Source of the DNA: a virus
Length of the DNA stretch: 64,000 nt
Virus record (IMG/VR): IMGVR_UViG_3300035670_009638
Coordinates: 18,502-82,501 of that record
Strand: one strand, 5' to 3'
Shown here: positions 12,639-63,468 of the stretch, in pieces
How positions within the stretch are numbered: position 1 is the first letter of the stretch
Layout: each line of letters begins with the position of its first letter
Position numbers and translations under genes: made by a program
Notes under the pieces: model-generated
Told to the model about the DNA's origin: nothing
The model's database searches: none
What the model saw: only the letters and a program-made list of their open reading frames with translations

Positions 12639-12820
12639 TTTTCTTACCTCCAATTTAGTAGTTGAATTTTTTTTATATCTCTCTAATTATTATTATATAC
12701 AGATTCTACCAACTCGTAAACACTTTTTTTGCAATATTTTGAAAGTTCTTGCAACTTTTTGTCAAAAAAAGAGAGGCTTTAGGCCCCTCTAAAATCACTC
12801 AACTAAATAAATCAGAAATA

Positions 12821-16209: not shown

Positions 16210-18210
16210 TTAGACTACTTCTACTTTTTTAAGTTCACCCCGTCTTGTAGCATAAGTTCCAGGTGTTGCTCGACTTTTAATTGCAGTCAAGTCTTTTGTA
16301 TTTACTTCCACTTCAGTACGAGTTGTTTTTAGTTTTAAAGTTACTTCCTTATCAAGGGTAATCATATCAACAACTTCTTGACCTTCTTTGTAACCATATT
16401 TCAGAACTTTTCTTCTACTAGAGAAAACTTTCATATCGACTTTAGCAATTCGATTATTCTTGTAAGCAATAATCAAGAATTTTCTTTTGCCATCATAGAT
16501 CGTATAATTAACAACATTTTCATTTTCAATTTCGAAGATGTTCATCAAGTAAGTTCCTAGAGAATTATTCTTCGTATCTTCAATCCTGCTTAATTCAATT
16601 TTGTATGCCATACAAGCATCAGTTATCATAACAACTTCAGACTTATTAGTAGCCTCGAAGACTTGAATAATTTCGTCACCTGGTTTCAATGCTGGTTCTT
16701 GTTCGAAATTCTTGAGTTTATAAACGTATCCTTCTTTAGTCAAATGAACTTTAACTGGATAATCAGGAATTGTTTGTTCTTGAATAAGACTTATTGGTTT
16801 TACATTCGTAAGCTCAATAATCTCAGATTGTCTTGGCTTACCATATTTTTCTTTCGTTTCTTCTAAATCGTTGATGATCAACTCGTTCAATCTTTTTTCA
16901 TTTCCAACAATGTCTTTATAATCCTTAATTTTCTTTTCAAGGTTTTCAATGTCCTTGATTTTCTTGACAATGTAATCTTTATTGATGTTTCGAAGTTTCA
17001 TGTCAGCTACTTCTTTTGCTTGCTCTTTGTCGATTCCAAAATGTTTTTGAAGATTCTTTTCAATCATATCTTCTTTAGATTTTCTAATGATATCGATTGC
17101 TTTATCAATATCAAGCAATACTTTTTCCAAACCTCTTAAAATATGAAGCTTCTCACTCATTCTTTTAATATCATAAGTTAAGCTTCTTTGAAGACTTGTT
17201 CTTCTCCATTTTAGCCATTCTTCGATAATGTTCCACACTCCCAGAACTCTTGGTAAATCATTAACAAGAATGTTCATATTGGAACTGTATGTTGATTGGA
17301 GTGGTGTAAATCGATATAACTTTTCAAGGAGCAATTTCATATCTGTTCCACGTCTTGCTGTAACTGTTATAAGCATTCCTCGAAGACCTGTTAAATCTTT
17401 AACATCTGTTACTTCTTTTAATTTCCCAGTTTTAGCGAGCTCAACGATCTTTTCAATTATTGCCTCTCTTGTCGTTGAATATGGAACTTCAGTTATAAGA
17501 ATTTCATTTCCTTCGATTTCAGCTTTTCCACGAATCTTCACTGTTCCAGTTCCTTCAGTATTGATTTGCTTAAATACTTCTAGCTCTTTTACAATGAATC
17601 CTCCAGTAGCAAAATCTGGAACCAAAGTGGTTTTCTTTTTTGTTTTTAGATATTTAATAACTGAGTCACAAAGTTCAATTAAGTTAAATGATGGGGTTGA
17701 TGAGCTAAATCCAACACCAATTCCAGATTGAGCATAAGTTAGTATTGCCGGGAATTTTACCGGAAGAACTTCTGGGATTTTAATTGTTCCATCATAATTG
17801 TCTACAAAATCTACAATATTCTTTTCAAAATCTTTCATCATATCAATAGAGATATCAGATAGTTTAACTTCAGAATATCGGCTTGCTGCTGGAGCTAAGT
17901 CTCTTGATGTATAGTTACCAAAGTTTCCTTTACCGATCAACCATGGATGAGAATGTCTGTCTTTTTGAACCATTCCAACCATCGTTCCATAAGTCGAACC
18001 ATGTGGGTGGTACTTGAAAACTTCTCCTTCAGCATTTGCACTTTTTGTAAACTTAATTGCATTCATTTGTTTCATTGCCCATAAAATTCTTCGATGGGCT
18101 GGTTTCAATCCATCTCTCAAATCTGGCAAAGCTCTGTCAAGAAGAACGTACGCGCTGTAGTTCATCATGTTATCTTGTACGATATTTTCAATTTGTTTAG
18201 TAGTAGTCAA
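16210..18210 (-). CDS. Type IIA topoisomerase subunit A (GyrA/ParC-like)
   Basis: RALPDLRDGLKP..RR, YHPHG, AASRYSE (catalytic Tyr) and PDFATGG. Confidence 0.95.
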   Translation of the reverse strand: MTTTKQIENIVQDNMMNYSAYVLLDRALPDLRDGLKPAHRRILWAMKQMNAIKFTKSANAEGEVFKYHPHGSTYGTMVGMVQKDRHSHPWLIGKGNFGNYTSRDLAPAASRYSEVKLSDISIDMMKDFEKNIVDFVDNYDGTIKIPEVLPVKFPAILTYAQSGIGVGFSSSTPSFNLIELCDSVIKYLKTKKKTTLVPDFATGGFIVKELEVFKQINTEGTGTVKIRGKAEIEGNEILITEVPYSTTREAIIEKIVELAKTGKLKEVTDVKDLTGLRGMLITVTARRGTDMKLLLEKLYRFTPLQSTYSSNMNILVNDLPRVLGVWNIIEEWLKWRRTSLQRSLTYDIKRMSEKLHILRGLEKVLLDIDKAIDIIRKSKEDMIEKNLQKHFGIDKEQAKEVADMKLRNINKDYIVKKIKDIENLEKKIKDYKDIVGNEKRLNELIINDLEETKEKYGKPRQSEIIELTNVKPISLIQEQTIPDYPVKVHLTKEGYVYKLKNFEQEPALKPGDEIIQVFEATNKSEVVMITDACMAYKIELSRIEDTKNNSLGTYLMNIFEIENENVVNYTIYDGKRKFLIIAYKNNRIAKVDMKVFSSRRKVLKYGYKEGQEVVDMITLDKEVTLKLKTTRTEVEVNTKDLTAIKSRATPGTYATRRGELKKVEVV

Positions 18211-18375
18211 GTTAAGTAACCTCCTTGTTAATCTCTCTCATATATTTATATCTGTCTGAGAGAAAATGTAAATTATATTTCTATAATTATTATATAAAAG
18301 ATATTGTAATTCGTACATATATTTTTGCAATTTTCAGATAATTTATAAATAAAAACTAGACTGGATAATTCCAGC

Positions 18376-20904: not shown

Positions 20905-21849
20905 TTATTTGTCATCATTTAACCAATCGTATAATACACTCTTACCAGTAGAAGAATAATCAAAAACATAAAACTGTTCTTTCTTGTAAGTGAAAGCTTG
21001 CTCTACCCATTCTTTAATTAGACCTCTCATATTCTTTATGTCTTTAACTCTAGTAAGCATCTTAACTACCGTATTACTAAACTCGTAATCATTTAAAGCT
21101 TCAGGATCTTCCATAGAGCAATCAGGAATTATAAATCCTTTAGAAATTTGGTATTTATAAGCATCTTCAATTTCTAGTATTTGAGAAGCATTTAAATAGA
21201 TTTGTTTATTAACAATCATAACCTTAATCCTATTCTTTAATTCTTGAGGTAAATTACAATCCCATAGTATTTCATATATATCTACTAGATTAGGATTAGG
21301 ATTAAGATTTTTATTTATATTTATTTCTTTTATATCTGTTTTATTTATATCTATTTTATTTAATAGGTGCTCGTTTTCAACAGTTGAAAATGAACTGTTG
21401 ATGTTCAATTGTTGATTTTCAGCACTTGAAGAAACCTTGATTTGACGCGATTCTTTCAATTGTTGATTTTCGTCAATTGAAAGTAAATGACCAAAAGTGC
21501 TGCTAATTTCCATAATCTTGAAGTCTACTTGTACTTCCTCAATTAGCTCAACTACTTCTTCATCAGAAAAAGGAACGTCTGAAATATGATAGATATGTTC
21601 ATTCTTTTTTCCATTTCTGTACTTTATATCAATCCAAAATTTCTTTTCTTCCAATTCTTTAATTGCATGAGAAATAGCAGCTCTACCAAACTTTGAATAT
21701 AGCTGCATTTTTCTAATCTCCCAAGTTTCTGGTAAAGACATTAAATGAGCTATCAAACCGATAGATCTAATATCTTCCAAATTTTGAAGAGGATTATTAT
21801 GGATTTGCGCATACTTGACTGTCTTCCTACGTTTAATGATATTTGACAT
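20905..21849 (-). CDS. Replication initiator-like protein with N-terminal winged HTH
   Basis: YAQIHN...GLIAHLMSLP..W...GRAAI..AIKELEEK; low-complexity linker carrying DNA repeats; RBS AAGGAG before ATG 21849. Confidence 0.7.
   Translation of the reverse strand: MSNIIKRRKTVKYAQIHNNPLQNLEDIRSIGLIAHLMSLPETWEIRKMQLYSKFGRAAISHAIKELEEKKFWIDIKYRNGKKNEHIYHISDVPFSDEEVVELIEEVQVDFKIMEISSTFGHLLSIDENQQLKESRQIKVSSSAENQQLNINSSFSTVENEHLLNKIDINKTDIKEININKNLNPNPNLVDIYEILWDCNLPQELKNRIKVMIVNKQIYLNASQILEIEDAYKYQISKGFIIPDCSMEDPEALNDYEFSNTVVKMLTRVKDIKNMRGLIKEWVEQAFTYKKEQFYVFDYSSTGKSVLYDWLNDDK
21290..21480. repeat. Putative replication origin (iterons plus AT-rich tract) inside the initiator gene
   Basis: TTCAATTGTTGATTTTC at 21404-21420 and 21455-21471; palindrome TTTTCAACAGTTGAAAA at 21374-21390; AT-rich tract at 21290-21365. 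Confidence 0.55.
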
Positions 21850-21906
21850 AATTTGTCGCTCCTTTTCTTCTTGATTTTTAGGAGCAACACCTGATATAAT
21901 AAAGTA

Positions 21907-21984
21907 AACCAAATTAAATGCACTTGTGAACTTTGGTCGGGGATCAGGTGTTGCAGTAGACGAGTTGGCGCTCGTCTATTTTTA
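21907..21984 (+). ncRNA. Antisense (countertranscript) RNA to the rep leader
   Basis: TTGATT-N18-(TG)TATAAT at 21871-21900; terminator TAGACGAG-ttggcg-CTCGTCTA plus T run; overlaps the 5' leader of rep. Confidence 0.65.
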
Positions 21985-22051
21985 TTATAATCTTAATTAT
22001 TGATACCGTAAATTGAATTGACGATATAACCTCAACATGGTAAAATATAAG

Positions 22052-22119
22052 TAGTAGTTGAGTTAAGCAATTAACTTGTTGTCCTGAATCTTTCCTCCGA
22101 TTGGTTCAGGACCTTTTTA
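22052..22119 (+). ncRNA. Putative trans-acting multi-target sRNA
   Basis: Promoter TTGACG-N17-(TG)TAAAAT at 22018-22046; hairpin AGTTAA-gcaa-TTAACT; terminator stem 22081-22112 with loop TTTCCTCCGATT and a T run; no ORF. Confidence 0.7.
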
Positions 22120-22473
22120 TGTATATTCATCAAAGAATGGCTCTAAGTATTCTGATTTTCCACAGGTGGGACAGACCTCTACAGAATTGGAAACTTTATT
22201 ACATAATTCGCAATATGCTTTTCCTTTTCTCTCATCATCAATTACTTCCTCAACATATTCTTCCATAATTCTTATTCCTTTTTTAGTTATTCCAGGTATA
22301 GGCTTAGTATTAAATTCATGCTTAAATAACATTTCAGTATCTACTTCAATAATTTTTCCAGCTAATTTTTTTAATGCTCTTTCCCATTTATCTTTTCCGT
22401 TGTATGTACCATTCCAGTCTGTATGTTCTTGTATGTATAGTTCGGCAGCATCTTTTCTGATTCTAATCTTCAC
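22117..22473 (-). CDS. Hypothetical protein with C-terminal zinc ribbon
   Basis: CELC...CPTC; RBS GGAGGTG before GTG 22473. Confidence 0.65.
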   Translation of the reverse strand: MKIRIRKDAAELYIQEHTDWNGTYNGKDKWERALKKLAGKIIEVDTEMLFKHEFNTKPIPGITKKGIRIMEEYVEEVIDDERKGKAYCELCNKVSNSVEVCPTCGKSEYLEPFFDEYT

Positions 22474-22581
22474 GTTCTCACCTCCCCACAAATATAATTA
22501 TAAATCATTTCTACAAAAAAGAAAATATAAGTAAAAAAACAAATAAAAAAATAAGCTCAGAAAAGAGCTTATTTCAAGTTT

Positions 22582-23154
22582 TTAGCTAAAATAATGTTTT
22601 TTACAATAAGCAAGATATTTACTCTTCTCTTCTACGAATGTATCACCATTTCTTGCTACTTTTCCATTAACAATTCTAGCGTTGTATTCTGCTATAGATT
22701 CGCAGTTATCATGCTGACAATTCATAGGAATGTTGGAAATGTTCATTGGCTCTATTTCACTTAATAGGTAACTCGAACCTTCAAAGTAGTCACCAGTGAA
22801 TGTAGTTGATAATCCGTAGAAATGAATATCAATTCCATTTTCAATTGCCCCGTTCAAAATTTTTGATAAAGTCATTTTATTTAAAAATTGAACTTCATCA
22901 ATATAAACTGTTTCAAGTTCTGGAACTGAAAAAAATAAATTAACAAATCTTATGACCTTTTCATGTTCATTAGCATTTATATTGATCGAGAAAATAAATT
23001 GTCCATTTCTACTTTCAATTGTACCAATGGTTCCTGTTTCTTCTTCTAATTTTGCAGAAAGAGTAATACATAAAGTATTATCTTTTTTAATTTTTTCAAT
23101 TAAAGATTTTGATTTCCCTGAACCCATAAGTCCAGTAGTAAAAGTTGCAACCAT
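22582..23154 (-). CDS. tdk: Thymidine kinase
   Basis: G.MGSGKS, IESRNG, IDEVQF, YGL...F.G..F and a C-terminal Zn site (C..HY). Confidence 0.88.
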   Translation of the reverse strand: MVATFTTGLMGSGKSKSLIEKIKKDNTLCITLSAKLEEETGTIGTIESRNGQFIFSININANEHEKVIRFVNLFFSVPELETVYIDEVQFLNKMTLSKILNGAIENGIDIHFYGLSTTFTGDYFEGSSYLLSEIEPMNISNIPMNCQHDNCESIAEYNARIVNGKVARNGDTFVEEKSKYLAYCKKHYFS

Positions 23155-23236
23155 ATTATTTTCCTCCTGGTATAGTAGTTGAATTACATTGTAATTATAT
23201 CTGCACCAGGGAAAACGTAAATTTCAATTCTCATAA

Positions 23237-23461
23237 TTATACTGGTCTTTTTATACTGGGCTTATCATCCTCATCTTCATCATCCAATATGCCTTTTTCT
23301 TCAAGTTTCATAACTATATAATCGTAGTCTTTTATTGGAAGAATTTCTCCGTAGATTCTAGAATACCTTTTACATAGATCGGACACAAACTGGTCAAAAG
23401 ATTGACCAGCTGTGAAGATCCCTTCATTTTTTATTTTCATCAATTTTTCTTTTGAGTCCAT
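23237..23461 (-). CDS. Hypothetical protein
   Basis: Coupled to the upstream GGCT gene; RBS GAGGTG. Confidence 0.6.
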   Translation of the reverse strand: MDSKEKLMKIKNEGIFTAGQSFDQFVSDLCKRYSRIYGEILPIKDYDYIVMKLEEKGILDDEDEDDKPSIKRPV

Positions 23462-23462
23462 A

Positions 23463-23876
23463 TTAAACCACCTCTACCATATGTTTTCTAAAATCACCGT
23501 CATTTATAGGCTCACCGAGGCCTTCTCTTTTGGTGTTATATAAATACATATAGCACTCAATCAAAGAGCCATCTGAGGCCTTACAGTGACCTAAAATACG
23601 ATGATAAAGGTTCATATCGTTATTTGGTCCATAGTAACCTTCTAGTCTGTCCAAAAGTTTCATGCTAATATTCAAGTATTCAGGTTTGATTGTAATAATC
23701 TCACCAGACACTTTTCCTGTTCCTTTTAGCATGCAAGGAAATCTTCCACATTCATGCATGTATAAATCTTTGTCATCAGCTACAGCAGATTCAATGCTTT
23801 CAATTGCCTCTTGGATTAAAATTTTATGATTGCTCATTCCACTCATTAAAGTACCATATACAAAAAATTTATTCAT
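23463..23876 (-). CDS. Gamma-glutamylcyclotransferase (AIG2-like)
   Basis: FVYGTLM.G..NH, V.GE, LDRLEG and Y.R. Confidence 0.88.
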   Translation of the reverse strand: MNKFFVYGTLMSGMSNHKILIQEAIESIESAVADDKDLYMHECGRFPCMLKGTGKVSGEIITIKPEYLNISMKLLDRLEGYYGPNNDMNLYHRILGHCKASDGSLIECYMYLYNTKREGLGEPINDGDFRKHMVEVV

Positions 23877-23941
23877 TATTTTTCCTCCTCTTATTTTAAT
23901 CTTAAGATTAAGAACTCCCCTTCTGGGGAGCTCTCTTTTTA

Positions 23942-24697
23942 TTAAGCTAGCTTAGCGATGTATCGTTGGGCTCTTTTGAATTGTTTTACTACCGGTTTAT
24001 TATCTGAAAGACCAACTTCTTCTAGCATTTCATCAAGAGCTTCTTCGTTGTTGCTTGACTGTAATGGAGTCATCTCTTGAATATTTGCTGCTGTTTCAAC
24101 TAACTTGTGTGTGAATTCGATCCATGCAAGAATTTCATTAATATTTGTTGTTCCTTGATGATGTCTGAACTCAATTGTTCCATACTTAACGTATGCTCTG
24201 TTGTTTAAATTGTAATATCTTGAACGGATTGAGTTTTTAAATTCTTCGATATTGGAAGCGCTTTCAACATTTTCCATAATTGGAGCAATTGGACTGCAAT
24301 AAGAACTTATTCTTCTTGATGGATTAATGATTGAGTAAATTGCATTTCTTTCATATTTATTATAAAGTCTGTATAAGTTTTTGATTTGGTTTATGTTGAA
24401 ATCGTTGATATCATGATGAACATGTAAACCAGTTTTCTTATTACAACGAACTTTCAACTCTTTTCTTAAAACATGAACTACAGTTTTTAATTCTTCTGTG
24501 TCAGTAAGTGGTGGGCTAACAATCTCCCATCCATTGATTGAAGCATCTGGTTGAACTTTCCATGCATTGTGATTTACTGGGCTTCCGTAACGATCACCTT
24601 CAACATTAATTCCAGCATTTTGTAATGCTTCAATTACCTCATAACGAGATTTACTTGTTGCTACTTCTAATTCTGCTCCAAATTTCATTTGTCTCAT
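23942..24697 (-). CDS. Putative amidoligase (COOH-NH2 ligase, Amidoligase_2)
   Basis: FGAELE, W....D.SI, EIVSPPL, GLHVH, RY..LN and TIEFR.HQGT. Confidence 0.88.
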   Translation of the reverse strand: MRQMKFGAELEVATSKSRYEVIEALQNAGINVEGDRYGSPVNHNAWKVQPDASINGWEIVSPPLTDTEELKTVVHVLRKELKVRCNKKTGLHVHHDINDFNINQIKNLYRLYNKYERNAIYSIINPSRRISSYCSPIAPIMENVESASNIEEFKNSIRSRYYNLNNRAYVKYGTIEFRHHQGTTNINEILAWIEFTHKLVETAANIQEMTPLQSSNNEEALDEMLEEVGLSDNKPVVKQFKRAQRYIAKLA

Positions 24698-24770
24698 TTT
24701 AATTACCTCCGATTTTTTTATTTTAGTTGAGTGATTATTTATATCTCTCTCTATTTATTATTATATCATG

Positions 24771-26208: not shown

Positions 26209-26805
26209 TTAGGCGATCTCTAGATATTGTTCGGCAACTACTTTTTGTAATTTCTTCTTAAGTTTATTCACTCTTTGGTTGGCAGCCTGACGAGTGATAC
26301 CATATTTATCAGCGTAATTTTGAACTGAGAAGGATTTTTTGTCGAGGATAACTTTTAGGAGATCTTCTTCTCCAGGTTCAATGCTTTCTTGAATGATGGC
26401 AGTCAATTCTTTGAAAGCAAGGTTGTCCATTGAGTTGTCATCTGTTGCGAACATATCTTCAAGTTTGAGATCGTCGTCTCCAACAGGAGCGTTCATTGAA
26501 ACTGTAACACCTTGATTTTTCAAGGAGTATTTATGGTAAGTGGCGTTTCTTACACCTTTTTGAAGTTTGTAATATAGATAAGTTGTGAAGCAATTTCCCT
26601 GAGTTGGTTCATATTGCTCATATGCTCTCCATAATTCTAAATCAAGTTCTTGTCTAAAATCTTCTTCTTCTACTGCGTTGAAGATAAACTTGTTGTTTGC
26701 TCTCTTCATAGCTTTAATGACCATTGGAGTAAATTGTTCTCTTACTTCTTCAAAAGTCATTTCCTTGCTAGTGTTATCAGAAAATAAGATTGTCTTTGTC
26801 ATCAT
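26209..26805 (-). CDS. Phage RNA polymerase sigma-70-family factor
   Basis: Region 2-like ED..QE..L.LWRAYEQY......F.TY; SMNAPVGDD; region 4 HTH (ADKYGITRQAANQR). Confidence 0.85.
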   Translation of the reverse strand: MMTKTILFSDNTSKEMTFEEVREQFTPMVIKAMKRANNKFIFNAVEEEDFRQELDLELWRAYEQYEPTQGNCFTTYLYYKLQKGVRNATYHKYSLKNQGVTVSMNAPVGDDDLKLEDMFATDDNSMDNLAFKELTAIIQESIEPGEEDLLKVILDKKSFSVQNYADKYGITRQAANQRVNKLKKKLQKVVAEQYLEIA

Positions 26806-26916
26806 AATAAAGTTCTCCTCCGATTCATTAATTTTTATATCTCACATTTTATTTATATCTGTCTTTTATAAAACGTAAATTAAAAATTAAATAAATTTAA
26901 AAGAATTTTAAAATAA

Positions 26917-28067: not shown

Positions 28068-28621
28068 GATTGTTTACCTCCTTGGATTATTTTTAGTATT
28101 TCATTAAGTACTCCAGATTTGGTAGTTTTATTTATTACATAGTCAACTTCTTTTTCGAAGTCTTTAAAGTCTTCTTCGTCTGCCATTAATCTTCTAAGAA
28201 GTTCGTTCACCCGGTCTTTCCGATTCAGTCCTCGAAGCAATCTGATCTCAAGATCTACCATTAGATAAATTCCAGTTACATTTTCTTTGCCAAGATTTTT
28301 AACTAAATCTCTGTAACCTTTTGGTTCAGTTACAACCACAAGATCTTTAGTTAAATCAATATCCTGGCGATTGATAGCATAATGCCATTCTGTTCCGAAA
28401 GCATTTTTAAATGTGTTCTTAGCAATCAATAGGTTGAATTCGTCAAGATGGTTATATTGTTGATCAGAAATAAAGTAATAATCTTTTCCACTAACTTCAT
28501 TTTTTCTTTTTGGTCGAGTTGTGTAAGTTATGATGGTTTCATATCCAATGTTAATGAGTTGCTTTAAAGTCGTGGTTTTACCAGAACAAGTTGGTCCCAA
28601 TAAAACATAAATCATAAGCAA
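28064..28621 (-). CDS. Guanylate-kinase-like NMP kinase
   Basis: GPTCSGKTT and TTRPKR.NEV.G.DYYF. Confidence 0.88.
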   Translation of the reverse strand: MLMIYVLLGPTCSGKTTTLKQLINIGYETIITYTTRPKRKNEVSGKDYYFISDQQYNHLDEFNLLIAKNTFKNAFGTEWHYAINRQDIDLTKDLVVVTEPKGYRDLVKNLGKENVTGIYLMVDLEIRLLRGLNRKDRVNELLRRLMADEEDFKDFEKEVDYVINKTTKSGVLNEILKIIQGGKQS

Positions 28622-28899
28622 CCACCCTTTATTCTATTGGCCAAAGTTCCTTTAGCTTCGTATAGCAAAGCTTCTAAAGTCTTTGAATCAAAAACACCAT
28701 CATGTCTTACTAGCTCATTTCCTCGTTTATCTGAAAAAATAATTGTATGCCATTTTTCAGGATGATATTTTTCTACGACTTCGTTATCAAGTTTTATTCT
28801 TTCAAGCTTGTACCCTTCTAATTTAGCTTCATCAATCTGACGATCTAAGAACGGAACAATCAAGCTGTCTTCTTCGTAAAGATAAATAATTTTTATCAT
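28612..28899 (-). CDS. Hypothetical protein (possible thioredoxin fold lacking CxxC)
   Basis: RBS ATCGGAGG; ...GNELVRHDG pattern. Confidence 0.55.
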   Translation of the reverse strand: MIKIIYLYEEDSLIVPFLDRQIDEAKLEGYKLERIKLDNEVVEKYHPEKWHTIIFSDKRGNELVRHDGVFDSKTLEALLYEAKGTLANRIKGGCL

Positions 28900-28951
28900 A
28901 ATCGTTCCTCCGATATTTAGTAGTTAAGTAACCAGAGAGAAATCTCTCTGA

Positions 28952-29566
28952 TTACAAAATATCAATAGCGATCTTCGACCAGTTTTCTAATCTGTCATAG
29001 AATTGCTTCAGCTTTAATTTTTCGATTGAGAAGAATTGTCCTTGAAGTTCTTCAGTTTCACGAACCTGAACATCTGTATCTTCTGGAACTTCAATTGCAA
29101 CTAATACTCCAATATGAACTCGACCAACTTCATCTTCATCATCATTTATAAGTCCAATAGGAGTTACTTTGAAGTTCTTATTATCAATAACTAGTTCTTC
29201 TTCAATTTCTCGTAGAAGGTTTTCATCCAGGACTTTATTAAAATCTTTTTCATCTGGAACTTCATTCATATGGCCACCAACACCTATTGAAAGTTTATTG
29301 TGCAATCTTGTTTCTCCTGCACCTTTCAATCGTTCATAAACAAAAACTTCATTTCCACGTTTTATAACTGCATATGGAATTGGTTGTTTGAAGTTTTCAT
29401 CTTCTTCTGCATTTCCACGTCTCATCACTTCATAAGTGTTGCTGATATTTTTTACGATTTTATTTACTATCTTTTTATCTTGAAAAGTTCCTTGGAATAC
29501 AAGCTTTTCATTTTCAAAGACTTCAGAACGTGGAGCAACAATAATCATTTCATCCATTTTTCCCAT
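28952..29566 (-). CDS. NUDIX-fold hydrolase (YmaB-like)
   Basis: KQPIPY, SIGVGGH, REIEEEL and VGRVHIG. Confidence 0.8.
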   Translation of the reverse strand: MGKMDEMIIVAPRSEVFENEKLVFQGTFQDKKIVNKIVKNISNTYEVMRRGNAEEDENFKQPIPYAVIKRGNEVFVYERLKGAGETRLHNKLSIGVGGHMNEVPDEKDFNKVLDENLLREIEEELVIDNKNFKVTPIGLINDDEDEVGRVHIGVLVAIEVPEDTDVQVRETEELQGQFFSIEKLKLKQFYDRLENWSKIAIDIL

Positions 29567-29568: not shown

Positions 29569-29691
29569 TTAAAAACCTCCGATTAATAAGAATTGAAAGA
29601 ATTTATATCCGAAATATGAATAAATAACAGTTGCAGATAATGAAACAAAGAAATGAATAACAAGAATAGTGTTGTATAGTTTGTTACTCAT
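29569..29691 (-). CDS. 40-aa membrane peptide (not in ORF track)
   Basis: MSNKLYNTILVIHFFVSLSATVIYSYFGYKFFQFLLIGGF; RBS GGAG; fills the gap exactly. Confidence 0.5.
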   Translation of the reverse strand: MSNKLYNTILVIHFFVSLSATVIYSYFGYKFFQFLLIGGF

Positions 29692-29698: not shown

Positions 29699-29905
29699 TC
29701 ACTCCGTAACTACCAAGTCGGCAGCTCGATAATATTCAACAACGACAGTAACAATGAAATATTCGATCTCTTTTCTTTGTCGTTTAGCAATTGTATAATC
29801 TTTTAAATTACTTCCATGTTCTTCTTTCATTTGTTGAACCATAGATTCGGCTTCTAAAAGAGTGTCAGCGAAAAAAGTTTCTTTTTTACCCATCAAAGTT
29901 TTCAT
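29699..29905 (-). CDS. Hypothetical protein
   Basis: RBS AATCGGAGG. Confidence 0.65.
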   Translation of the reverse strand: MKTLMGKKETFFADTLLEAESMVQQMKEEHGSNLKDYTIAKRQRKEIEYFIVTVVVEYYRAADLVVTE

Positions 29906-29925
29906 AGTTTATTTACCTCCGATTT

Positions 29926-30291
29926 TTAATATCCATTTTCTTGTCTTTCGTAGTTGACTTTGTTTTTAGCAATATACATGCTGATAATTTCTTCTTCATT
30001 TCTAAAACCAAGAGCTAAACCAACATTTATAGCAAAATGAAGGAAATCAATATATTCTTCTTTAGATAATTTATTTTGGATCTCAAGTTTTTCTGGTCCC
30101 CATTTCAAATACTTTGAAGACCAATCTTTAGCAAACGGTACTTCATGAAGCATTTCATGTAGTTCATCTGTAGCCCATAGCATGTGTTCTTTTATATATT
30201 TAGCTCGTTCTTGCAAGTCCATAGAATCCAAGTCATAACCCATACGTTTTTGAAATTTAAGTTGGGAATCAAGTAAAAATTGAAGTGTCAT
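29926..30291 (-). CDS. All-alpha NTP pyrophosphatase (dimeric dUTPase/dCTPase-like)
   Basis: DELHE, K.W, EEYIDFLHF and Y..KN.VN..RQ..GY; RBS AGGAGG before ATG 30291. Confidence 0.8.
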   Translation of the reverse strand: MTLQFLLDSQLKFQKRMGYDLDSMDLQERAKYIKEHMLWATDELHEMLHEVPFAKDWSSKYLKWGPEKLEIQNKLSKEEYIDFLHFAINVGLALGFRNEEEIISMYIAKNKVNYERQENGY

Positions 30292-30421
30292 AGTAGTTGA
30301 GTTCCTCCTATTCAATAATTTTTTAAATAACTTTTTATTTAACTCACATTGTATTTATATCTGTTTAAATAAAAACGTAAATAATTTATTACATAATTTT
30401 TTAAATAAAAAGTTGGAGATA

Positions 30422-33400
30422 TTACTCCCCAACTTTTTCCATTTGTAAGTAAAGGTTATCTGAGTTATAACCGTTCACTTTCATGCAAGTATGATTAAAT
30501 TGGGTTCCAGTTTTTCTTAATACAAATTCTTCTCCCTTTCTAAATCCTACAAGAACTAAGATTGTTCCTCGTTCGAACCAGCTTGGGTCCAATACCTGCT
30601 TCTCTTTTCCATTCACTCGAACAACTTTCTTGTCATAATGAGCAAATTGTCCCTTAGTGAATCGAACAGTTACAACACCAGAAGGAGTGAGAACATAAAC
30701 CAAAGACTTTCCTTTTGCTTTATCAACAACTGTTCCAGCAATAACATCGATTTTGAATTGAGGAATTTTTCTTCCTCTATAACTCTTGTAACCAGTTACA
30801 ACCGGCTCTTTTGGCAGTTCTTCAAAATCTACTACATTGAAATACTTGTCAATTGGCATATAGTCTAGTTCATGCTTATCAGAATAGAATAAATTTGTTT
30901 CCATCTCCCAGGACTCAACTGCTCCTCTACAGTTCTTTTTCCAGAATTCTTGCATCTTTACTTTATTGAAAAGAGTTGCAGCTTCTGGGGAAGTGACCCA
31001 GTCTTTTAATTTTTCAATTGCTTTTCCATAGAACTTGTTCCAACTCTTCTCATCGATTTTAAGTTGGCCATCAACAAAATCATAATTAACTTGGCTAGAA
31101 TAATTTTTGATAAAGTCTGACTCAATCTCTTTGTTCATTGGAACTTTGTTTCTTCCTTGAATTTTGTGTCTAAATTCATAGATCTCAAGTTCTTTAGCAA
31201 ACTTCTCTTTATCTACTAAATGTGCAATCACAGGGAATTGAACCATTGTGAGCTTTTCTCGTTTTGGTGTTACTAATCTGACATAATCGATCATTAGCTG
31301 TCTTCTATCAGGATTCAACTTATCGAAGCAACCAGATTTGATTAAAGTAACACCTTTTGCATCAGAAATAAGTTTTGTTTTGATGACTCTTTCATAGAAG
31401 TCTACAAAACTTTCATATGGTCTGTTTTGGATAATAGCTTCAATAGCATCAACACCTAAACCAGAGATTGGCTTTAGACCAAACAATATTTTTCCTTCAG
31501 ATTCTAGTGGAGTGAATCCCATATTTGACAAGTTAATATCTGGAGGAAGTATATCACCTTTCATATCTCCAATAGCTTTAGCGATTGCTCCGTAGTTTGT
31601 TCCAGCTGCACTATCACCAAGTAGACCAGCATTTACCGATAAGCATGCAGTCTTCCACCAAACTGGACCAAATCGATAACAAATGTTCATTTCAATCATC
31701 AAAATTAATGTATATCCAGCAATATGAGGAAGAGAGAAAGAATAACCAAACTGAGGCTTTAGTTCTTTTTCCCATACATAATCAAGGAACTCTTTTCTTG
31801 TGCCATTCTTTTCTCCGCCTTCATAGAATAGAATTCTTTGTTCTTCAATTAATTTTTGATTCTGTTTAGCCACAGCTTTACGAAATTTGTTTGCTTGAGT
31901 TAAACTAAATCCAGCAATTTTCGGGTCCATAGAGAGCAACATAAGACCTTCTTGAGTATCACAAATTCCATATCGATCTAATAAGTGTTTCTCAAGTACT
32001 TTAATTTCATCTTGTGTCAATCCATATTCGTTCATTTCTTCATACCATTGGTTAATATCATTTTTAAAACGAACGAATTTATCAAGAGGTTGTTCTCCGT
32101 CTGTTGAAAGTCTCATTAAAGAGTTGCCAGCACACAACTCTTCAAAGTTTCTTGGATTGATTTTAGTTAGAGCTTGAATTCCTACTGCAGTCTCAAATTG
32201 GAAAGCATTTAGAACATGACCTTCGAATAACATATCCCACATTTCTGGCGCTTCCATTTCAAGTACGTCAGGATGGAAATATTTGTTGTAAGTTTCTCGT
32301 AGAGTTCCTTGCCATTCAATTTTTCCATGTTCAAGAAGCAAATCCATTGCAGCTCTAATTCTGTCCAATGCGTTGATTGAAAGATAATCAAGTTTAAGGG
32401 CTCCCATATAAACAGAATCATTCATATCAAATTGAGTAACAGGCAAGCCAGATGTTGTTTTCATCATTGCATTTTGAGCAACATATCCATCTGGGAAGAT
32501 AATAACTCCTGAAGCATGTTGTCCACGTCCTGAAATTAGACCCTCAATTGATAACATTGCTTCTTTTAAACCATCATATTTTTCTACTTCAGCAATAAAA
32601 TCTTTAGCTGGTTTTTTACCTTTGGCTGGGTTTCCATTAAAGCATTCATCTAAATTCCAAATTCCACCTTTTTCAGTAGGAATTAAGTTTGCAATATTAT
32701 GAGCAATATCTTTATCAATTCCTAAGCCACGACAAGCAGTTAAAACTGTTGATCGAGTGCCCTCAGTTGTGAATGTTCCCATGTTTAAAACATTTTCTTC
32801 TCCATAAGCTTCCTTAGTTAAAGAAATTATTTCTGCTCGTTTTGACCCTTCTGAGTCTAAATCAATATCAGGAAGTTCAACACGTTCTTTGGATAAGAAA
32901 CGCCAATGAGGAAGATTGTGTTTTAATGGATTAATTTGAACGATGTCTAAAAGATAATTTAGATAGAAACAGCTTGCAGAACCACGAGAAACACCAACTA
33001 ATGATACTTGCCACATTAGGTCAACTACTTCTTTTGTTAGAACAAAGTAAGATGACATTGGCTGATTAAGTTTTTCAGTGATGTGATATAACTCATTTAA
33101 TTCTGTATCAATACGACTTAAGTTTGTTTCGTTTAACTCTTCATTTTTTGAAATCATTCCTTCAGCAATCAAATGAAGATAGTAACGATCAACTTCATAT
33201 TTCGATTCTGAGTATTTTTTGATATATTCATATTTGTCATAGAACTGTTCAAATAAAGGATTGAGTTCAAATTTTGGAATATGAGCTTTCGGAATTTTAA
33301 CTTCTTGTTCGAATTTTATAGGCTGAATTTTTTTCATGATCAGATGAGTGTTTCTAATCAGTTCATCTAAAAGCTGTTCATCGAAGTATTCAAGCAGTTC

Positions 33401-34213
33401 TTCTCGATTCATTACATAAGTTGTTGCGTAGAAAGCTTCAACTTCTCTTTCACCTTGAGACGATTGCAAATAGATTTTGTGTGCTGTTGCTTGGTCTTTA
33501 TTTAGATAATGAGCATCTGTTGAAACAACACAAGTAACACCATATGCTTGACCAATTTTATAAAGCATTTTGTTAGCAATTTGTTGGTCTCTGTTATGGC
33601 TTGGCTGTAGCTCAAAATACAAGTCATCACCAAAAACACCTTTAAGCCAAACAACAAGATTATGAACATTTCTTTTGTTCTCTTCTGTTGGTTCATCATG
33701 ATATTTAATTAAAAGTTGTGGTACCTCTCCACCAACACAAGCTGTTGTAGCAATGATATGTCCTCGGTATTCTTCCATAAGAGCCATTAATTCATCTTTA
33801 TATGTTGGTACTCGTTCCATTCCTCGATAGAAAAACGAATTATACCAAGCTCGTGATGATAATTTTCTGAGGCCTTCATATCCTTTATCGTCTTTGGCAA
33901 TTAAGATAAAGTGATGGAATGAAACCCTTTCATTAATTTCTCTTTTCTCTTGAACTTCATCTTTATCAACTAGATATATCTCGTTTCCGAATGCAAGGAC
34001 AAACTTTCCAAATCTATCTCTATTACTCTCAACATACTGGTGTGCTTTCACGTGAGAAGACAAAGTCTCATGATCGGTTATTGCGATTCCTGGCAATCCA
34101 AGTTCTAGTGCATAGTCTAATAACTCTTCTGGCTTGTTAATAGCATCTCGTAACCGAAAATTCGACGCGTGCGTGTGGTTATGGACTGAAAAAGGTTGTA
34201 GTAGTTGAGTCAT
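30422..34213 (-). CDS. dnaE: DNA polymerase III alpha subunit
   Basis: PHP domain (HNHT..S, AITDH, TDAHY), SRGSA, PDIDLD, GQHASG, KLDYL and FSLPH; no intein seen. Confidence 0.95.
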   Translation of the reverse strand: MTQLLQPFSVHNHTHASNFRLRDAINKPEELLDYALELGLPGIAITDHETLSSHVKAHQYVESNRDRFGKFVLAFGNEIYLVDKDEVQEKREINERVSFHHFILIAKDDKGYEGLRKLSSRAWYNSFFYRGMERVPTYKDELMALMEEYRGHIIATTACVGGEVPQLLIKYHDEPTEENKRNVHNLVVWLKGVFGDDLYFELQPSHNRDQQIANKMLYKIGQAYGVTCVVSTDAHYLNKDQATAHKIYLQSSQGEREVEAFYATTYVMNREELLEYFDEQLLDELIRNTHLIMKKIQPIKFEQEVKIPKAHIPKFELNPLFEQFYDKYEYIKKYSESKYEVDRYYLHLIAEGMISKNEELNETNLSRIDTELNELYHITEKLNQPMSSYFVLTKEVVDLMWQVSLVGVSRGSASCFYLNYLLDIVQINPLKHNLPHWRFLSKERVELPDIDLDSEGSKRAEIISLTKEAYGEENVLNMGTFTTEGTRSTVLTACRGLGIDKDIAHNIANLIPTEKGGIWNLDECFNGNPAKGKKPAKDFIAEVEKYDGLKEAMLSIEGLISGRGQHASGVIIFPDGYVAQNAMMKTTSGLPVTQFDMNDSVYMGALKLDYLSINALDRIRAAMDLLLEHGKIEWQGTLRETYNKYFHPDVLEMEAPEMWDMLFEGHVLNAFQFETAVGIQALTKINPRNFEELCAGNSLMRLSTDGEQPLDKFVRFKNDINQWYEEMNEYGLTQDEIKVLEKHLLDRYGICDTQEGLMLLSMDPKIAGFSLTQANKFRKAVAKQNQKLIEEQRILFYEGGEKNGTRKEFLDYVWEKELKPQFGYSFSLPHIAGYTLILMIEMNICYRFGPVWWKTACLSVNAGLLGDSAAGTNYGAIAKAIGDMKGDILPPDINLSNMGFTPLESEGKILFGLKPISGLGVDAIEAIIQNRPYESFVDFYERVIKTKLISDAKGVTLIKSGCFDKLNPDRRQLMIDYVRLVTPKREKLTMVQFPVIAHLVDKEKFAKELEIYEFRHKIQGRNKVPMNKEIESDFIKNYSSQVNYDFVDGQLKIDEKSWNKFYGKAIEKLKDWVTSPEAATLFNKVKMQEFWKKNCRGAVESWEMETNLFYSDKHELDYMPIDKYFNVVDFEELPKEPVVTGYKSYRGRKIPQFKIDVIAGTVVDKAKGKSLVYVLTPSGVVTVRFTKGQFAHYDKKVVRVNGKEKQVLDPSWFERGTILVLVGFRKGEEFVLRKTGTQFNHTCMKVNGYNSDNLYLQMEKVGE

Positions 34214-35250: not shown

Positions 35251-35706
35251 TTAATCTTCAATCTTTTTCTTTTTTCCTTTGAAAATATGAGGCATGCTAA
35301 CAAAAATATTTATATCAACTTTTGAACCAGGAAGATATTTGTTAACAAAATAATTAAAGAATTGAACATCATCTTCAAGATTCAAAAGGTTAGAAGATCT
35401 TTGGAATGCATTGATTTGCTTAACTTTATTGTTTTCATCAAATATGAAATGAATTGTTGAAATACATTCTTCTGAATGATACATAACTTGTCTTTCTGAA
35501 GTTATCCATCCATGTTCATACTTGAATAACAAATGTCTTAGCTGCATTTCAAGTGAAGTATAATATGGTTCATCAGAAGGTGGAAAATCAGTTTTTGTAA
35601 CTGGATTAATCAAGAGGAATGGCTCAAATAGAACCATATCCTCAGTCTCTTTTGAAACTAATAATTCATCAACAACTGGTAGTTCATATTGAAAACTTGT
35701 GAGCAT
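35251..35706 (-). CDS. Miniature thymidylate-synthase-fold protein (putative pyrimidine C5-modifying enzyme)
   Basis: SERQ, ECISTIHF (catalytic-Cys-like), FQRSSNLLNLEDD and MPHIF; TAATG-coupled to the ThyX-like gene. Confidence 0.6.
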   Translation of the reverse strand: MLTSFQYELPVVDELLVSKETEDMVLFEPFLLINPVTKTDFPPSDEPYYTSLEMQLRHLLFKYEHGWITSERQVMYHSEECISTIHFIFDENNKVKQINAFQRSSNLLNLEDDVQFFNYFVNKYLPGSKVDINIFVSMPHIFKGKKKKIED

Positions 35707-36674
35707 TAAAGATTACCTCCACGAAGTTCTTCCATGTATTTTTTAGATTGAGCAGCAAGTAATTCAAGCTCTTTCTTATACTCAGCAAACATCTTCTGGA
35801 AGATTGTTGGACCTTCTGGAGGATTTGTTCCATTAACTTCCTCACGATATGCTTGATAGATAAAGTCTTTCTCGTTCCATTCGAATTTGTCTGAGTTTTC
35901 TTCAGGGAAGTATAAGTTTGTTGCATGTCCATTACGAGCATTTTTAATGTAATGGAATGATGGCATTTCAAAATCAATAATGTTCAAGTGAGCAATTGGA
36001 TATGCTTTACATACTGCTAACCACATTTGATATGCAATGATGTTATCTGATTTTGGTTGAATTTGTCGGTCAATACGTTGCTTAACAAATCCAAGTAAAT
36101 CTTTAAAGTTACAACTTGCATAATAGAAATTGTCATGGTTTTTATTAAGAATTAATCGAGCATCCATAATTGAAATTTGTTTAGAATCAATCATGTCTTG
36201 ATATAACTTTCTGCATTCATAAGTTAATTGTTTATATCGTTCATAGAATTCTGGAGAGTTTTGAATAGCTTCTGGAACTACTGCTGTATGATGGGTTAAC
36301 CAGCGATCTCCAGTACACTGAGCTGAGAATGAGAAAGTTCGATGGCGAATTAAATGAGTTACGTCCTGAACTGAAATACCTTCAATTCGGAAAGTTAAAC
36401 GAATTGTTTCAAGAATAGAAGGTAAAGTTTTGAAAGTGAAAGCTTTCTCGATATCTTCAACTACTTGTTCCATAGAATATTCTTGTCCAGGCTCATCTGC
36501 CCAAGTTGCATTTACATAACCAGGAAGGTAATTAACAATGTTTTGCCATGGAGTATGATCGACTAGGGTAACATTAATATTCTCTAAGTCATTAACAAAC
36601 TCAAAATCTGGTTCTTCACCGAAACGTAATTCCATTGGTAATTTTACAGGTTCAAGATTGTTATTTTTTGGCAT
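35706..36674 (-). CDS. Divergent ThyX-like flavin-dependent enzyme
   Basis: LE...TFRIEGIS....HLIRHRTFSFSAQC and DARLIL; RBS AATCGGAGG before ATG 36674. Confidence 0.8.
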   Translation of the reverse strand: MPKNNNLEPVKLPMELRFGEEPDFEFVNDLENINVTLVDHTPWQNIVNYLPGYVNATWADEPGQEYSMEQVVEDIEKAFTFKTLPSILETIRLTFRIEGISVQDVTHLIRHRTFSFSAQCTGDRWLTHHTAVVPEAIQNSPEFYERYKQLTYECRKLYQDMIDSKQISIMDARLILNKNHDNFYYASCNFKDLLGFVKQRIDRQIQPKSDNIIAYQMWLAVCKAYPIAHLNIIDFEMPSFHYIKNARNGHATNLYFPEENSDKFEWNEKDFIYQAYREEVNGTNPPEGPTIFQKMFAEYKKELELLAAQSKKYMEELRGGNL

Positions 36675-36788
36675 AATAGAAAACCTCCGATTGATTAAAT
36701 AATTTTTTAAATAAGTTATTAAATAACTCACATTGTATTTATATCTGATCAAATAAAAATGTAAATCATTTTTTAAATAATTTTTTAT

Positions 36789-37388: not shown

Positions 37389-37837
37389 ATCATCTCATCC
37401 ATTGCTTTATTTGCTAATTCATCTGCTCTCTCATTTCCAGGTTCACCGGAATGGCCTTTGACTTTAGTGAATTGGATAAATGCAAACTTATTAATCAAAT
37501 CAATAAGTTCAATCCACAATTCTCTGTTTTCAACTGGAGTTTTAGCTGATGTAACCCATCCATTATTCATCCATTTGACATACCATTTTTGGTTGATGCA
37601 ATTACATACATAAGCTGAATCAGTTCGTACTTCAACAGGGATATTAAACTTTTTCATAGCTCTGAGGCCTTCAATAGCAGCTTTTAATTCCATTTGATTA
37701 TTAGTTACATTTCTAAAACCTTGATACAATTCTTTGGTGTGTTCTCCGTATTGAAGAACAACACCATAACCTCCAATTGAATTAGTTTTACTATTACCTC
37801 TCGAACCGCCATCAACGTAAATTACAACTCTACTCAT
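37385..37837 (-). CDS. rnhA: Ribonuclease HI
   Basis: YVDGGSRGN, TNNQMEL, TDSAY and KVKGHSG.PGNERAD.LA. Confidence 0.95.
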   Translation of the reverse strand: MSRVVIYVDGGSRGNSKTNSIGGYGVVLQYGEHTKELYQGFRNVTNNQMELKAAIEGLRAMKKFNIPVEVRTDSAYVCNCINQKWYVKWMNNGWVTSAKTPVENRELWIELIDLINKFAFIQFTKVKGHSGEPGNERADELANKAMDEMI

Positions 37838-38865
37838 TAAAGAATTCCTCCTTCAATAAGTTCTTTAACAATTTCTGAAACGTGTTTCTCGGTTGTATCA
37901 ATTTTGATTTTGTTTTTATATGCAGAATTATCAAAGTAAAATTCCATAACTGCTTTATGATAATCAAAATCTAGTATTTCATGGTTTGTTTCAATACATC
38001 TTCTTTCTAATTCTTCTGTCGAGCAATCAATATAAATTGCTAAAACACAATCTGATTTTGCAAGTTGGATTTCCATTTCCTTATAAGTTTCTTTTAGATC
38101 GTCGCTTTTTTCAAAAATATCACAATATGCTTGGAAAGATTCGGGTCCTCTATCCATTGTCATATGTTTATATTTTGTTTGTTTATCAATTTCATTGATT
38201 AATGTATCTTTACCAGCTCGATCTACAGCAGAAATAACAATTATTTTTGGAGAAGACTCAAGAATATATTCCATTCTAATTCCTTCCAAATGTTTATATT
38301 TTGAATAAGGAGTTTTATAAGGTTCTCCAGTTCTTAATAGTTCTTTTACTTTTCCTGAACTTAGTCCAAAATTTTCTTTAAAGTATTTGTAAGCTTCTCC
38401 AACAAAATTAAAGAAAATTTGTTTCCCATCAGGCATTATAAGTTTGCATTTCCTTCTTGATGGAGAGGGTTTGCCATACATTCCATTGTTTTTTCCTAAA
38501 ACTCTTTCTTTCTGTTCATCTGACCATTTATTTCCGTAATTTGGATTATCTTGTCCCTTATACATTTCAGAGAATTCAATTCTTGTTTTCTCTGAAATTC
38601 TTTCTCCTTCTTTTTTATTAAATCTGGCTTCACCTAAATTATGGTATCTTTTTGTAAGTATTTCTTCGTATTTAAAAGCTATCATCTTATCATCAAATTC
38701 TTTTACAATTTCAATATCAACACTTTCTTTAAGGTAAGGTCGTTGGTGCCAATCGCCATATGCTCTACCACCAGAACCTTTACCAACATAAAGAACTTCT
38801 CCAGTTTCTTTATCTTTGTGGATATAAACATAATGTTTAGTAGTAATTGAGATTTGTTTAGTCAT
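37837..38865 (-). CDS. GIY-YIG/NUMOD endonuclease fused in frame to a dNMP (thymidylate-kinase-like) kinase
   Basis: N-terminal YVY...YVGKG..R; C-terminal IIVISAVDRAGKDT P-loop and DR motif; internal RBS GGAAGGA with ATG at 38274. Confidence 0.75.
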   Translation of the reverse strand: MTKQISITTKHYVYIHKDKETGEVLYVGKGSGGRAYGDWHQRPYLKESVDIEIVKEFDDKMIAFKYEEILTKRYHNLGEARFNKKEGERISEKTRIEFSEMYKGQDNPNYGNKWSDEQKERVLGKNNGMYGKPSPSRRKCKLIMPDGKQIFFNFVGEAYKYFKENFGLSSGKVKELLRTGEPYKTPYSKYKHLEGIRMEYILESSPKIIVISAVDRAGKDTLINEIDKQTKYKHMTMDRGPESFQAYCDIFEKSDDLKETYKEMEIQLAKSDCVLAIYIDCSTEELERRCIETNHEILDFDYHKAVMEFYFDNSAYKNKIKIDTTEKHVSEIVKELIEGGIL

Positions 38866-39091
38866 AACTCTTATAACCTCCGATTTATTTATTTCTCATA
38901 ACTTTTATATCTGTTATGACTGAAACGTAAATCGAATAGGTTAATAAAATTTCAATTTTATAATAAAAAATGAGCTCAGTTTTCATCAAACTCACTACGT
39001 TAAGACTATTAAGTTGGTTTATATGTAATAAAATTTGGGCATGATATAATATATCCTAAATAGCAAAAAATAAAGCAGAGACAAACTCTGC

Positions 39092-41046: not shown

Positions 41047-41101
41047 ATAGCATTCCTCCGATTGATTTAGTAATTGGGTGGAAGGGATTAAACCCTTCCG
41101 T

Positions 41102-41881: not shown

Positions 41882-42050
41882 GATTTATTTCCTCCGATTT
41901 CATATTTTTATTTCGTGAGTATTTATATCTCTCACATTGTATTTATATCTGCTACTTGAAAAATGTAAATTAAAAAACAAAAATTAAATTTAATATATTT
42001 TTCAATTCTGTTATAATAGTTATAACTACTATAATCGGGGGAATTGAATA

Positions 42051-42581: not shown

Positions 42582-42618
42582 TAGACATGACCGTTATGAC
42601 TGATATAATCGTTATGAC
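42562..42618. repeat. 9-bp-period GTYATRAC-like array
   Basis: GTCATAAC 42562, ATCATGAC 42571, GACATGAC 42584, GTTATGAC 42593, GATATAAT 42602, GTTATGAC 42611. Confidence 0.6.
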
Positions 42619-51258: not shown

Positions 51259-51328
51259 AAAATATTACCTCCGATTGTTTAATTTTTATTTCACATTATA
51301 TTTATATCTGAAGTAAACAAAACGTAAA

Positions 51329-63454: not shown

Positions 63455-63468
63455 TTCCTCCGATTAAA

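Follow-up and report, generated by a model that had tools for sequence, protein, structure and literature searches.

A predicted phage small RNA mirrors two translation-start tags and probably controls translation of about 20 replication genes

Introduction

Why should a short phage segment without an open reading frame carry, within about 66 nt, the complements of two different sequences that recur at the translation starts of the replication genes? We met this question at positions 22018-22119 of a 64,000-nt stretch of viral DNA, hereafter the window, which comprises bases 18502-82501 of an 82.5-kb phage contig from IMG/VR that is about 98% complete. An initial annotation, made from the letters alone, had proposed a small RNA (sRNA) with two seeds that acts as the master repressor of the lytic programme. 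Our comparison of the locus with its relatives points to a narrower answer: one RNA probably controls the translation of about 20 phage replication genes, because its two exposed parts mirror two translation-start tags.

The source phage has its nearest named relative in Geobacillus phage GR1 (OK896991.1), which is grown on G. stearothermophilus ATCC 10149; the two share 88% identity in the 3 kb that were compared (window 21000-24000). In both phages the genes for replication, recombination and nucleotide metabolism occupy a 50-kb arm on a single strand, the minus strand in the window, and the structural and lysis genes lie on the opposite strand. Further relatives were reached by different routes: the IMG/VR phages G002 (84 kb) and G003 through the DnaE gene, the metagenome contig L048 through a two-seed pattern search of metagenomes and genomes, and G007, a complete 84.6-kb IMG/VR record with terminal redundancy, through the 118-aa gene adjoining the sRNA. 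Five sRNA lineages were compared, namely the window together with GR1, whose transcript is identical, and G002, G003, G007 and L048. G007 (also L187, IMGVR_UViG_2756170314_000001) has direct terminal repeats and is an isolate-derived record.

Results

A self-contained candidate sRNA gene

The segment 22018-22119 looks like a self-contained plus-strand sRNA gene (Table 1). The promoter TTGACG-N17-TGnTAAAAT, which the initial annotation had seen pointing into an ORF-less unit closed by a terminator, is present as described, and the terminator loop at 22091-22102 indeed reads UUUCCUCCGAUU, the complement of the tag. With a promoter of its own, an intrinsic terminator and no ORF, the segment has the predicted features of an independent transcription unit. 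Neither an ORF nor a tRNA nor an Rfam match was found in the unit; the covariance models of Rfam 15 (C4, RsaE, cuckoo and others) gave no match at the gathering score, and at E up to 10 nothing rose above a noise level of 15 bits. The predicted fold (z = -4.4) leaves the 5' end free and has two hairpins, a small one and that of the terminator. On the minus strand of the locus there is no ORF past the pseudo-start and no terminator.

The position of the -10 box and the conservation in relatives place the probable transcript start at about A22053. The 5' seed is consequently AGUAGUUGAGUU, two bases shorter than the GUAGUAGUUGAGUU (22051-22064) given initially, whose complementarity to a second gene set is otherwise borne out.

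Table 1. Positions of the predicted sRNA unit, of the tag and motif 2, and of the adjacent rep-locus elements (window coordinates unless stated; gene coordinates in brackets)
Feature	Position	Strand	Remarks
Second plus-strand unit (within 21849-22012)	21871-21900; terminator 21955-21980	+	TTGATT, 18-nt spacer, TGnTATAAT
rep promoter TTTACG-17-TATAAT	22012-21984	-	back to back with sRNA promoter
sRNA promoter	22018-22046	+	-35 TTGACG 22018-22023, 17-nt spacer, extended -10 TGgTAAAAT 22038-22046
Predicted sRNA transcript, about 66 nt	22053-22118	+	start placed 7 nt past -10 box; end at T-run
Counterpart of the predicted transcript in GR1	GR1 42643-42708	complement	
5' seed AGUAGUUGAGUU	22053-22064	+	first nucleotides unpaired; complementary to mRNA motif (A)ACUCAACUACU
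Hairpin 1 GAGUUAAGCAAUUAACUU	22060-22077	+	hairpin of other sequence at same place in G002, L048, G007
Terminator hairpin	22081-22112	+	10-bp stem, loop UUUCCUCCGAUU
T-run of intrinsic terminator	22114-22118	+	on plus strand in all lineages
Tag AATCGGAGG, amidoligase-family gene (23942-24697)	24706-24714	-	name from GR1 orthologue; ACTCAACTA 12 nt upstream
Tag, phage sigma-70-family factor gene (26209-26805)	26817-26825	-	
Tag, NUDIX gene (28952-29566)	29576-29584	-	
Tag, 68-aa ORF (29699-29905)	29916-29924	-	
Tag, ThyX-like gene (35706-36674)	36684-36692	-	
Tag, 342-aa P-loop gene (37837-38865)	38877-38885	-	
Tag, HD-domain gene (40486-41046)	41055-41063	-	
Tag, nucleoside 2-deoxyribosyltransferase gene (41423-41881)	41891-41899	-	ACTCAAACTACT after ATG
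Tag, 94-aa gene (47852-48136)	48146-48154	-	
Tag, 349-aa P-loop NTPase gene (Sak4-like, 50209-51258)	51268-51276	-	
Tag, second deoxyribosyltransferase gene NDT2 (54586-55068)	55079-55087	-	inside end of upstream gene
Tag, 318-aa gene (55882-56838)	56849-56857	-	called SSB in the initial annotation
Tag, 425-aa gene (62171-63448)	63457-63465	-	GR1 orthologue annotated ThiF-like
Weaker tag ATCGGAGG, 95-aa thioredoxin-family gene (28612-28899)	28909-28916	-	
Motif 2 TACTTAACTACTAA, 95-aa thioredoxin-family gene	28917-28930	-	just upstream of weaker tag
Motif 2 GACTCAACTACTAC, DnaE-like polymerase gene (30422-34213)	34198-34211	-	right after ATG
Motif 2 AACTCAACTACTAA, DnaB-type helicase gene	47128-47141	-	codons 5-9
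Motif 2 AACTCAACTACTAT, dUTPase-like gene	30290-30303	-	between SD and ATG
Motif 2 AATTCAACTACTAT, thymidine kinase gene	23172-23185	-	leader
Motif 2 AATTCAACTACTAA, Rho_N-domain gene	12655-12668	-	leader, followed by AATTGGAGG
Motif-2 variant ATCTCAATTACTAC, 342-aa P-loop gene	38840-38853	-	
Motif-2 variant AACTTGACTACTAC, GyrA-like gene	18200-18213	-	spans TTG start

The unit is conserved as one would expect of a gene read from the plus strand. The GR1 transcript is 100% identical to that of the window amid a promoter spacer and flanks that differ, and an identical unit also occurs in DNA contigs from compost and soil; a search for RNA data sets with the unit listed none. The promoter hexamers are kept in GR1, G002, G003, L048 and G007 with a diverged spacer. 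In all diverged homologues the -35 box is TTGAC or TTGAT, the -10 box is (TG)nTAAAAT, and AGUAGUUGAGU begins about 7 nt beyond the latter, followed by a first hairpin that differs in sequence, by the terminator stem and by a T-run on the plus strand. Moreover, the core of the 5' seed, GUAGUUGAGU, is invariant across the five lineages, and the terminator stem has compensatory changes in 6 of 12 pairs, both sides having changed with pairing kept. The loop UUUCCUCCGAUU is invariant as well save for one C>U in G007, which could still form a G.U pair with the 13 unchanged tags of that phage. According to the predicted structures, the conserved scaffold would present the seeds in the loop and at the 5' end; they are displayed unpaired in three of the four homologue folds, and the predicted fold of G003 differs, with both seeds partly buried.

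The initial annotation had suggested looking for covariation between seed and target in related phages. None was found among the relatives between tag and loop, as the loop hardly varies, and cognate and non-cognate 5' seeds did not differ in the number of starts they matched. Pattern searches for further homologues mostly returned chance matches: the exact 16-nt loop pattern gave seven in IMG/VR, all of them chance; the -10 box combined with the seed gave at least 118 chance matches, with none bearing sRNA features among the matches listed; and the two-seed pattern, run against metagenomes and genomes, gave one true homologue, L048. A further homologue, in the contig G006 (L186:2859-2922), is nearly identical to that of G003, with three changes that all fall in the loop (GTTCCTCCTATTCGG). 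Its loop sequence CCUCCUAUU would mismatch the AATCGGAGG tags of the same sample; the contig is of low quality with Ns, so that either sequencing error or genuine variation of the loop may account for the changes.

The loop complement tags the starts of replication-arm genes

Complementarity of the RNA to several mRNA initiation regions exceeds chance. The tag AATCGGAGG matches the window 14 times, always on the minus strand, whereas shuffled sequence gave 0.18 matches on average and never more than 1. Thirteen copies are followed by an ATG after 8-11 nt, and the remaining one lies opposite the hairpin loop, as its complement. The minus-strand starts listed in the initial annotation carry the tag at exactly the coordinates given there, the ORF at 28899 with the weaker ATCGGAGG; its entry '29905' is the start-codon end of the gene, which does have a tag further upstream (Table 1). 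In the Shine-Dalgarno (SD) region the tag is found in 13 genes of the window, 14 of the whole genome and 18 of GR1, where 18 of 19 copies lie 8-11 nt ahead of start codons annotated independently in GenBank. Translation-start windows, taken from -45 to +35 and covering 6-9% of the sequence, contain 54 of the 58 copies found in five genomes, with Fisher p values between 3e-4 and 4e-20. Three of the four remaining copies are the sRNA locus itself and the fourth is in the genome G000. Far fewer genes are tagged in G002 and G003 (5 and 4).

The tag is a discrete element rather than the end of a continuum, because, of the 67 GGAGG on the gene strand of the whole genome, 17 have a C in front and every one of those 17 reads ATCGGAGG. 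Its commonest one-base variant, AATTGGAGG, which permits a G.U pair with the loop G, has 12 copies versus 3 for A and none for G at the same position. Pairing with the ribosome does not account for the bases AATC ahead of GGAGG, as had been asserted before: the 16S tail (...CACCUCCUUU, from a Clostridium and not from the host) cannot pair with the AAUC part of the tag. The predicted energy of the duplex between loop and tag is -10 to -12.5 kcal/mol at 65 C, compared with -5 to -6 for the 16S tail. A loop duplex of -12 kcal/mol is available at 52% of early-arm starts in G000, versus 3% of gene interiors and 17% of structural-arm starts.

Tagged genes are mostly the first gene behind one of two promoter types repeated along the replication arm. 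One is TTTACG-N16/17-(GA)TATAAA, often succeeded by a conserved leader ACAATGTGA(G)AAATAAA; the other is TATAAT-aataat-TAGAGAGATATAAA. These promoters lie on the minus strand, for instance upstream of 38865, 51258, 34213, 24697 and 12638. The tag is retained on orthologues with diverging leaders: the Sak4-like gene is tagged in all five genomes compared, and the orthologues of the 318-aa gene and of NDT2 are each tagged in GR1, G002 and G001.

A second motif matches the 5' end of the RNA

The complement of the 5' seed, motif 2, marks a partly separate set of genes. The 13-nt matches reported earlier at 34198 (dnaE), 47129 (helicase) and 30291 (dUTPase) are all present, as are the 10-nt matches at 23173 (tdk) and 12656 (Rho_N) and the near-matches. 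With up to three mismatches, the second seed has 23 matches versus 6.9 expected, and the motif-2 cores TCAACTAC and CAACTACT are enriched at translation starts with odds ratios of 20-60 in four genomes. In G000 the 5' seed reaches a duplex of -12 kcal/mol or better at 25% of early-arm starts; the share is 3% for gene interiors and likewise 3% for structural-arm starts, and shuffled seeds give 0.9%. Enrichment over shuffled controls and at start codons, two of the checks proposed in the initial annotation, holds for both seeds. Both motifs are concentrated at replication-arm starts and absent from structural-gene starts, and some 20 genes of the window have at least one of the two. In the Rho_N leader, GR1 has AATCGGAGG where the window reads AATTGGAGG.

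Tag and motif 2 often abut, in either order, in G007, GR1 and G002 (e.g. ACTCAACTACT directly followed by AATCGGAGG), an arrangement that fits two seeds on one RNA. At such sites the 5' end and the loop of the sRNA could form one nicked helix of about 20 bp. A role of motif 2 as a 16S-pairing enhancer found no support: its pairing with 16S rRNA (of a Clostridium, not of the host) scored -10.3 against a mean of -11.7 for shuffled versions and is no better than theirs.

Where motif 2 falls within coding sequence, the helicase CTCAACTACTAA is kept in GR1, G003 and G001 while codons nearby change. At the motif-2 sites in codons 5-9 (47128-47141, 38840-38853 and orthologues), Ser-Thr-Thr is kept and the neighbouring residues change; the two proteins, a helicase and a P-loop kinase-like protein, are unrelated, and the pattern recurs across lineages. 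This suggests that the constraint on these codons acts on nucleotides.

Discussion

Proposed mechanism and alternative readings

We propose, with a probability of about two in three, that the locus encodes a trans-acting base-pairing RNA whose pairing blocks the 30S subunit and down-regulates the replication arm. Host sigma-A RNA polymerase would transcribe the sRNA from its near-consensus extended -10 promoter and stop at the intrinsic terminator. The product would expose two parts, the extreme 5' end AGUAGUUGAGUU and the 12-nt terminator loop UUUCCUCCGAUU. The loop would pair with the private 9-nt tag AAUCGGAGG that forms the SD region of the tagged genes, and the 5' end with (A)ACUCAACUACU in the ribosome footprint of about ten more genes, be it in the leader, in the interval between SD and ATG, or in the first codons. 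Such pairing would most likely prevent 30S binding, and its outcome would be that translation of the arm for replication, recombination and nucleotide metabolism is lowered in concert, that of the phage sigma factor included. The sRNA would in effect do as an RNA what a translational repressor of the RegA type does as a protein.

Much of the initial reading is preserved in this proposal: the sRNA gene and its complementarity at about 20 starts, that of the sigma factor included, were recovered. Its master-repressor part is unsupported, the tagged genes lying behind sigma-A-type promoters. In its strongest form, that part would make the same sRNA the immunity factor of a possibly episomal prophage, expressed constitutively in lysogens, silencing the sigma factor and replication genes and blocking superinfection. 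The plasmid-prophage P1 uses its c4 RNA in a comparable way. The host-type, near-consensus promoter of the sRNA would suit such a role, and so would the sigma-factor tag, which is found in four of five genomes (orthologues in GR1, G003 and G001 included). A carrier or episomal prophage state is furthermore hinted at by plasmid-like functions, namely a RepA-type rep gene with its antisense unit, a ParM-like gene and a XerC/D-type recombinase, and by G007 as a terminally redundant contig from an isolate-derived record. However, the sRNA alone cannot silence the arm, since the early promoters are sigma-A-like and would stay active under a regulator of translation; GR1 was isolated on a host, and the sigma tag is missing in G002. 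We therefore consider an immunity function unlikely.

Might the motifs have another principal reader? An RNA-binding protein or the ribosome could recognise them, with the sRNA masking the sites, or pairing of the sRNA could have a stabilising or activating effect on the mRNAs, for instance through protection of their 5' ends. Motif 2 often stands at the extreme 5' end of leaders, just past the -10 box, and the tags are unusually exact for sRNA targets. Many motif-2 sites in G002, moreover, read CAACTACTA, a consensus kept beyond the complement of that phage's own sRNA, which would prefer ...CTG. On the other hand, a Pfam scan of ten neighbouring proteins revealed no RNA-binding or repressor candidate, motif 2 pairs with the Clostridium 16S rRNA no better than shuffled versions do, and the variable order and spacing of the motifs suit two RNA seeds better than one protein site. 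We rate this family of explanations as quite improbable. The absence of a minus-strand terminator between 22117 and the rep promoter raises a further issue, because the complementary RNA is then probably also made, and the hairpin folds on both strands. It could be the minus strand that functions, the read-through mRNA of the 118-aa gene showing AAUCGGAGG in a loop together with motif 2 as a decoy or relic start; or the plus-strand RNA could act in cis only, as an antisense RNA or insulator between the 118-aa gene and rep, the tag match being a by-product of a duplicated start module. Yet the plus-strand promoter boxes and T-run keep fixed distances from the conserved 5' end in five lineages, and the minus-strand 'start' has no ORF behind it, nor is any relic ORF conserved. 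A relic would not remain 100% identical amid diverging flanks, and the presence of both complements in one 66-nt unit by chance is very unlikely. Such minus-strand or cis-only readings strike us as highly improbable, and a trans-acting RNA that reads both motifs remains our preferred account.

Comparison with known systems

Firmicutes have sRNAs with anti-SD loops, namely RsaE/RoxS and LhrC. Together with the cuckoo/CcsR family, whose loops read CCUCCUCCC (PMC4615179, PMC8034643), these share with the candidate RNA a C-rich loop motif that pairs with the ribosome-binding sites of many mRNAs. They differ in being cellular, in having two to four equal loops and in addressing generic SD targets, whereas the RNA described here is phage-encoded, uses a single loop that is also its terminator, and bears a second, unrelated seed at its 5' end. 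Its loop also reads four bases outside the SD, which restricts its matches to tagged phage genes.

Among phage RNAs, the c4 RNA of P1/P7 and the CI RNA of satellite P4 pair through exposed loops with phage ribosome-binding regions, and the P1 and P4 RNAs are immunity factors of a plasmid or satellite prophage. The T4 RegA protein, which has a loose sequence preference, is alike in that a single phage factor recognises many early mRNAs at their initiation regions and adjusts their translation jointly; the reader proposed here is, in contrast, an RNA with exact complementarity. Sar and OOP (review PMC12197685) are further phage-encoded small RNAs with exposed loops that pair with ribosome-binding regions of phage mRNAs. 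All of c4, CI, sar and OOP act on one operon beside their own gene, whereas about 20 dispersed tagged targets are predicted for the present RNA. A keyword search of a 2025 review of phage sRNAs yielded no multi-target regulon marked by a tag.

The closest parallel to the tag itself comes from Cluster K mycobacteriophages, in which start-associated sequences (SAS) were described in 2011 and the authors did not decide between an RNA and a protein as their reader (Pope et al. 2011, PMC3203893; PMC12699233). Like SAS, the tag is short and asymmetric and consists of an SD core plus bases unable to pair with 16S rRNA; in both cases 11-19 copies stand a few nucleotides before the ATG in one orientation and in the non-structural arm only, are kept on gene families across relatives, and are accompanied by one odd copy away from gene starts. 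As an SD-core repeat about 3-11 nt before starts, mostly ATG, with one orientation and confinement to the non-structural arm, the tag has the defining traits of SAS. The two differ in consensus (GGGATAGGAGCCC for SAS, AATCGGAGG for the tag), host phylum and phage group, and the complement of the tag is carried by a conserved sRNA gene. Inverted repeats of 17 bp resembling ESAS were not seen upstream of the tags. The tag is best regarded as an analogue of SAS, not as a member.

In the Cluster K phage Anaya (JF704106, about 59849-59900; L197:9849-9900), a long hairpin carries the sole reverse SAS in its apical loop of 10 nt, CCUCCUAUCC. The intergenic region of 350 nt around this hairpin is structured (z = -4.5) and conserved across 182 Cluster K phages, and the Anaya-type loop is kept in Adephagia, Validus and LilPharaoh. 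The homologous loop of Bryler and Syra333 reads UUCUCCCUUC with an unchanged SAS. We rejected the idea of a mirror RNA for all of Cluster K, as it holds in Anaya, Adephagia, Validus and LilPharaoh and not in Bryler or Syra333. The parallel is only partial because the Bryler loop differs although the SAS does not, and it is suggestive only.

If our reading is correct, some 20 genes in the phage of a thermophile, with roles in replication, recombination and nucleotide metabolism or encoding the sigma factor, have their translation set by a single 66-nt RNA, and this control runs through a 9-nt barcode that host mRNAs lack. It would supply a concrete mechanism for start-associated tags, whose reader in mycobacteriophages has not been named since 2011, and would extend the range of known phage sRNAs to one with a regulon of many tagged phage genes. 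The reading is directly testable, as cultured GR1 has the identical RNA and 18 tags, and the pair of tag and RNA could be an orthogonal translational switch for thermophilic Bacillota. A broader conjecture, for which the odds seem to us evenly balanced, is that unrelated phage groups mark blocks of genes with a private SD extension read by a dedicated sRNA. The version found here would be of a two-seed type, its 5' end and terminator loop stacking into one long helix on composite sites and creating a phage-owned regulon invisible to host mRNAs. Such an RNA could be the reader of SAS, or even an RNA immunity factor in this plasmid-like Geobacillus phage.

The rep locus and other elements of the arm

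The second plus-strand unit (Table 1) is antisense to the 5' leader of rep (20905-21849, minus strand). A 12-bp long-range stem at this locus, GCAACACCTGAT/ATCAGGTGTTGC, has compensatory changes in G002 and G003. By analogy, the arrangement resembles a plasmid-style antisense control of rep. Contigs found through the rep protein were unrelated integrative elements only, without the sRNA or the tags; the rep gene is a mobile module. In Staphylococcus phage SpP, a distant relative among the sextaecviruses with the same genome layout, repeated promoters are present and a comparable tag was not found. The DUF3967 gene (window about 42011-42619; GR1 23223-23741) is the only protein gene of the replication arm that runs in the direction of the sRNA, and its position would suit a regulator.
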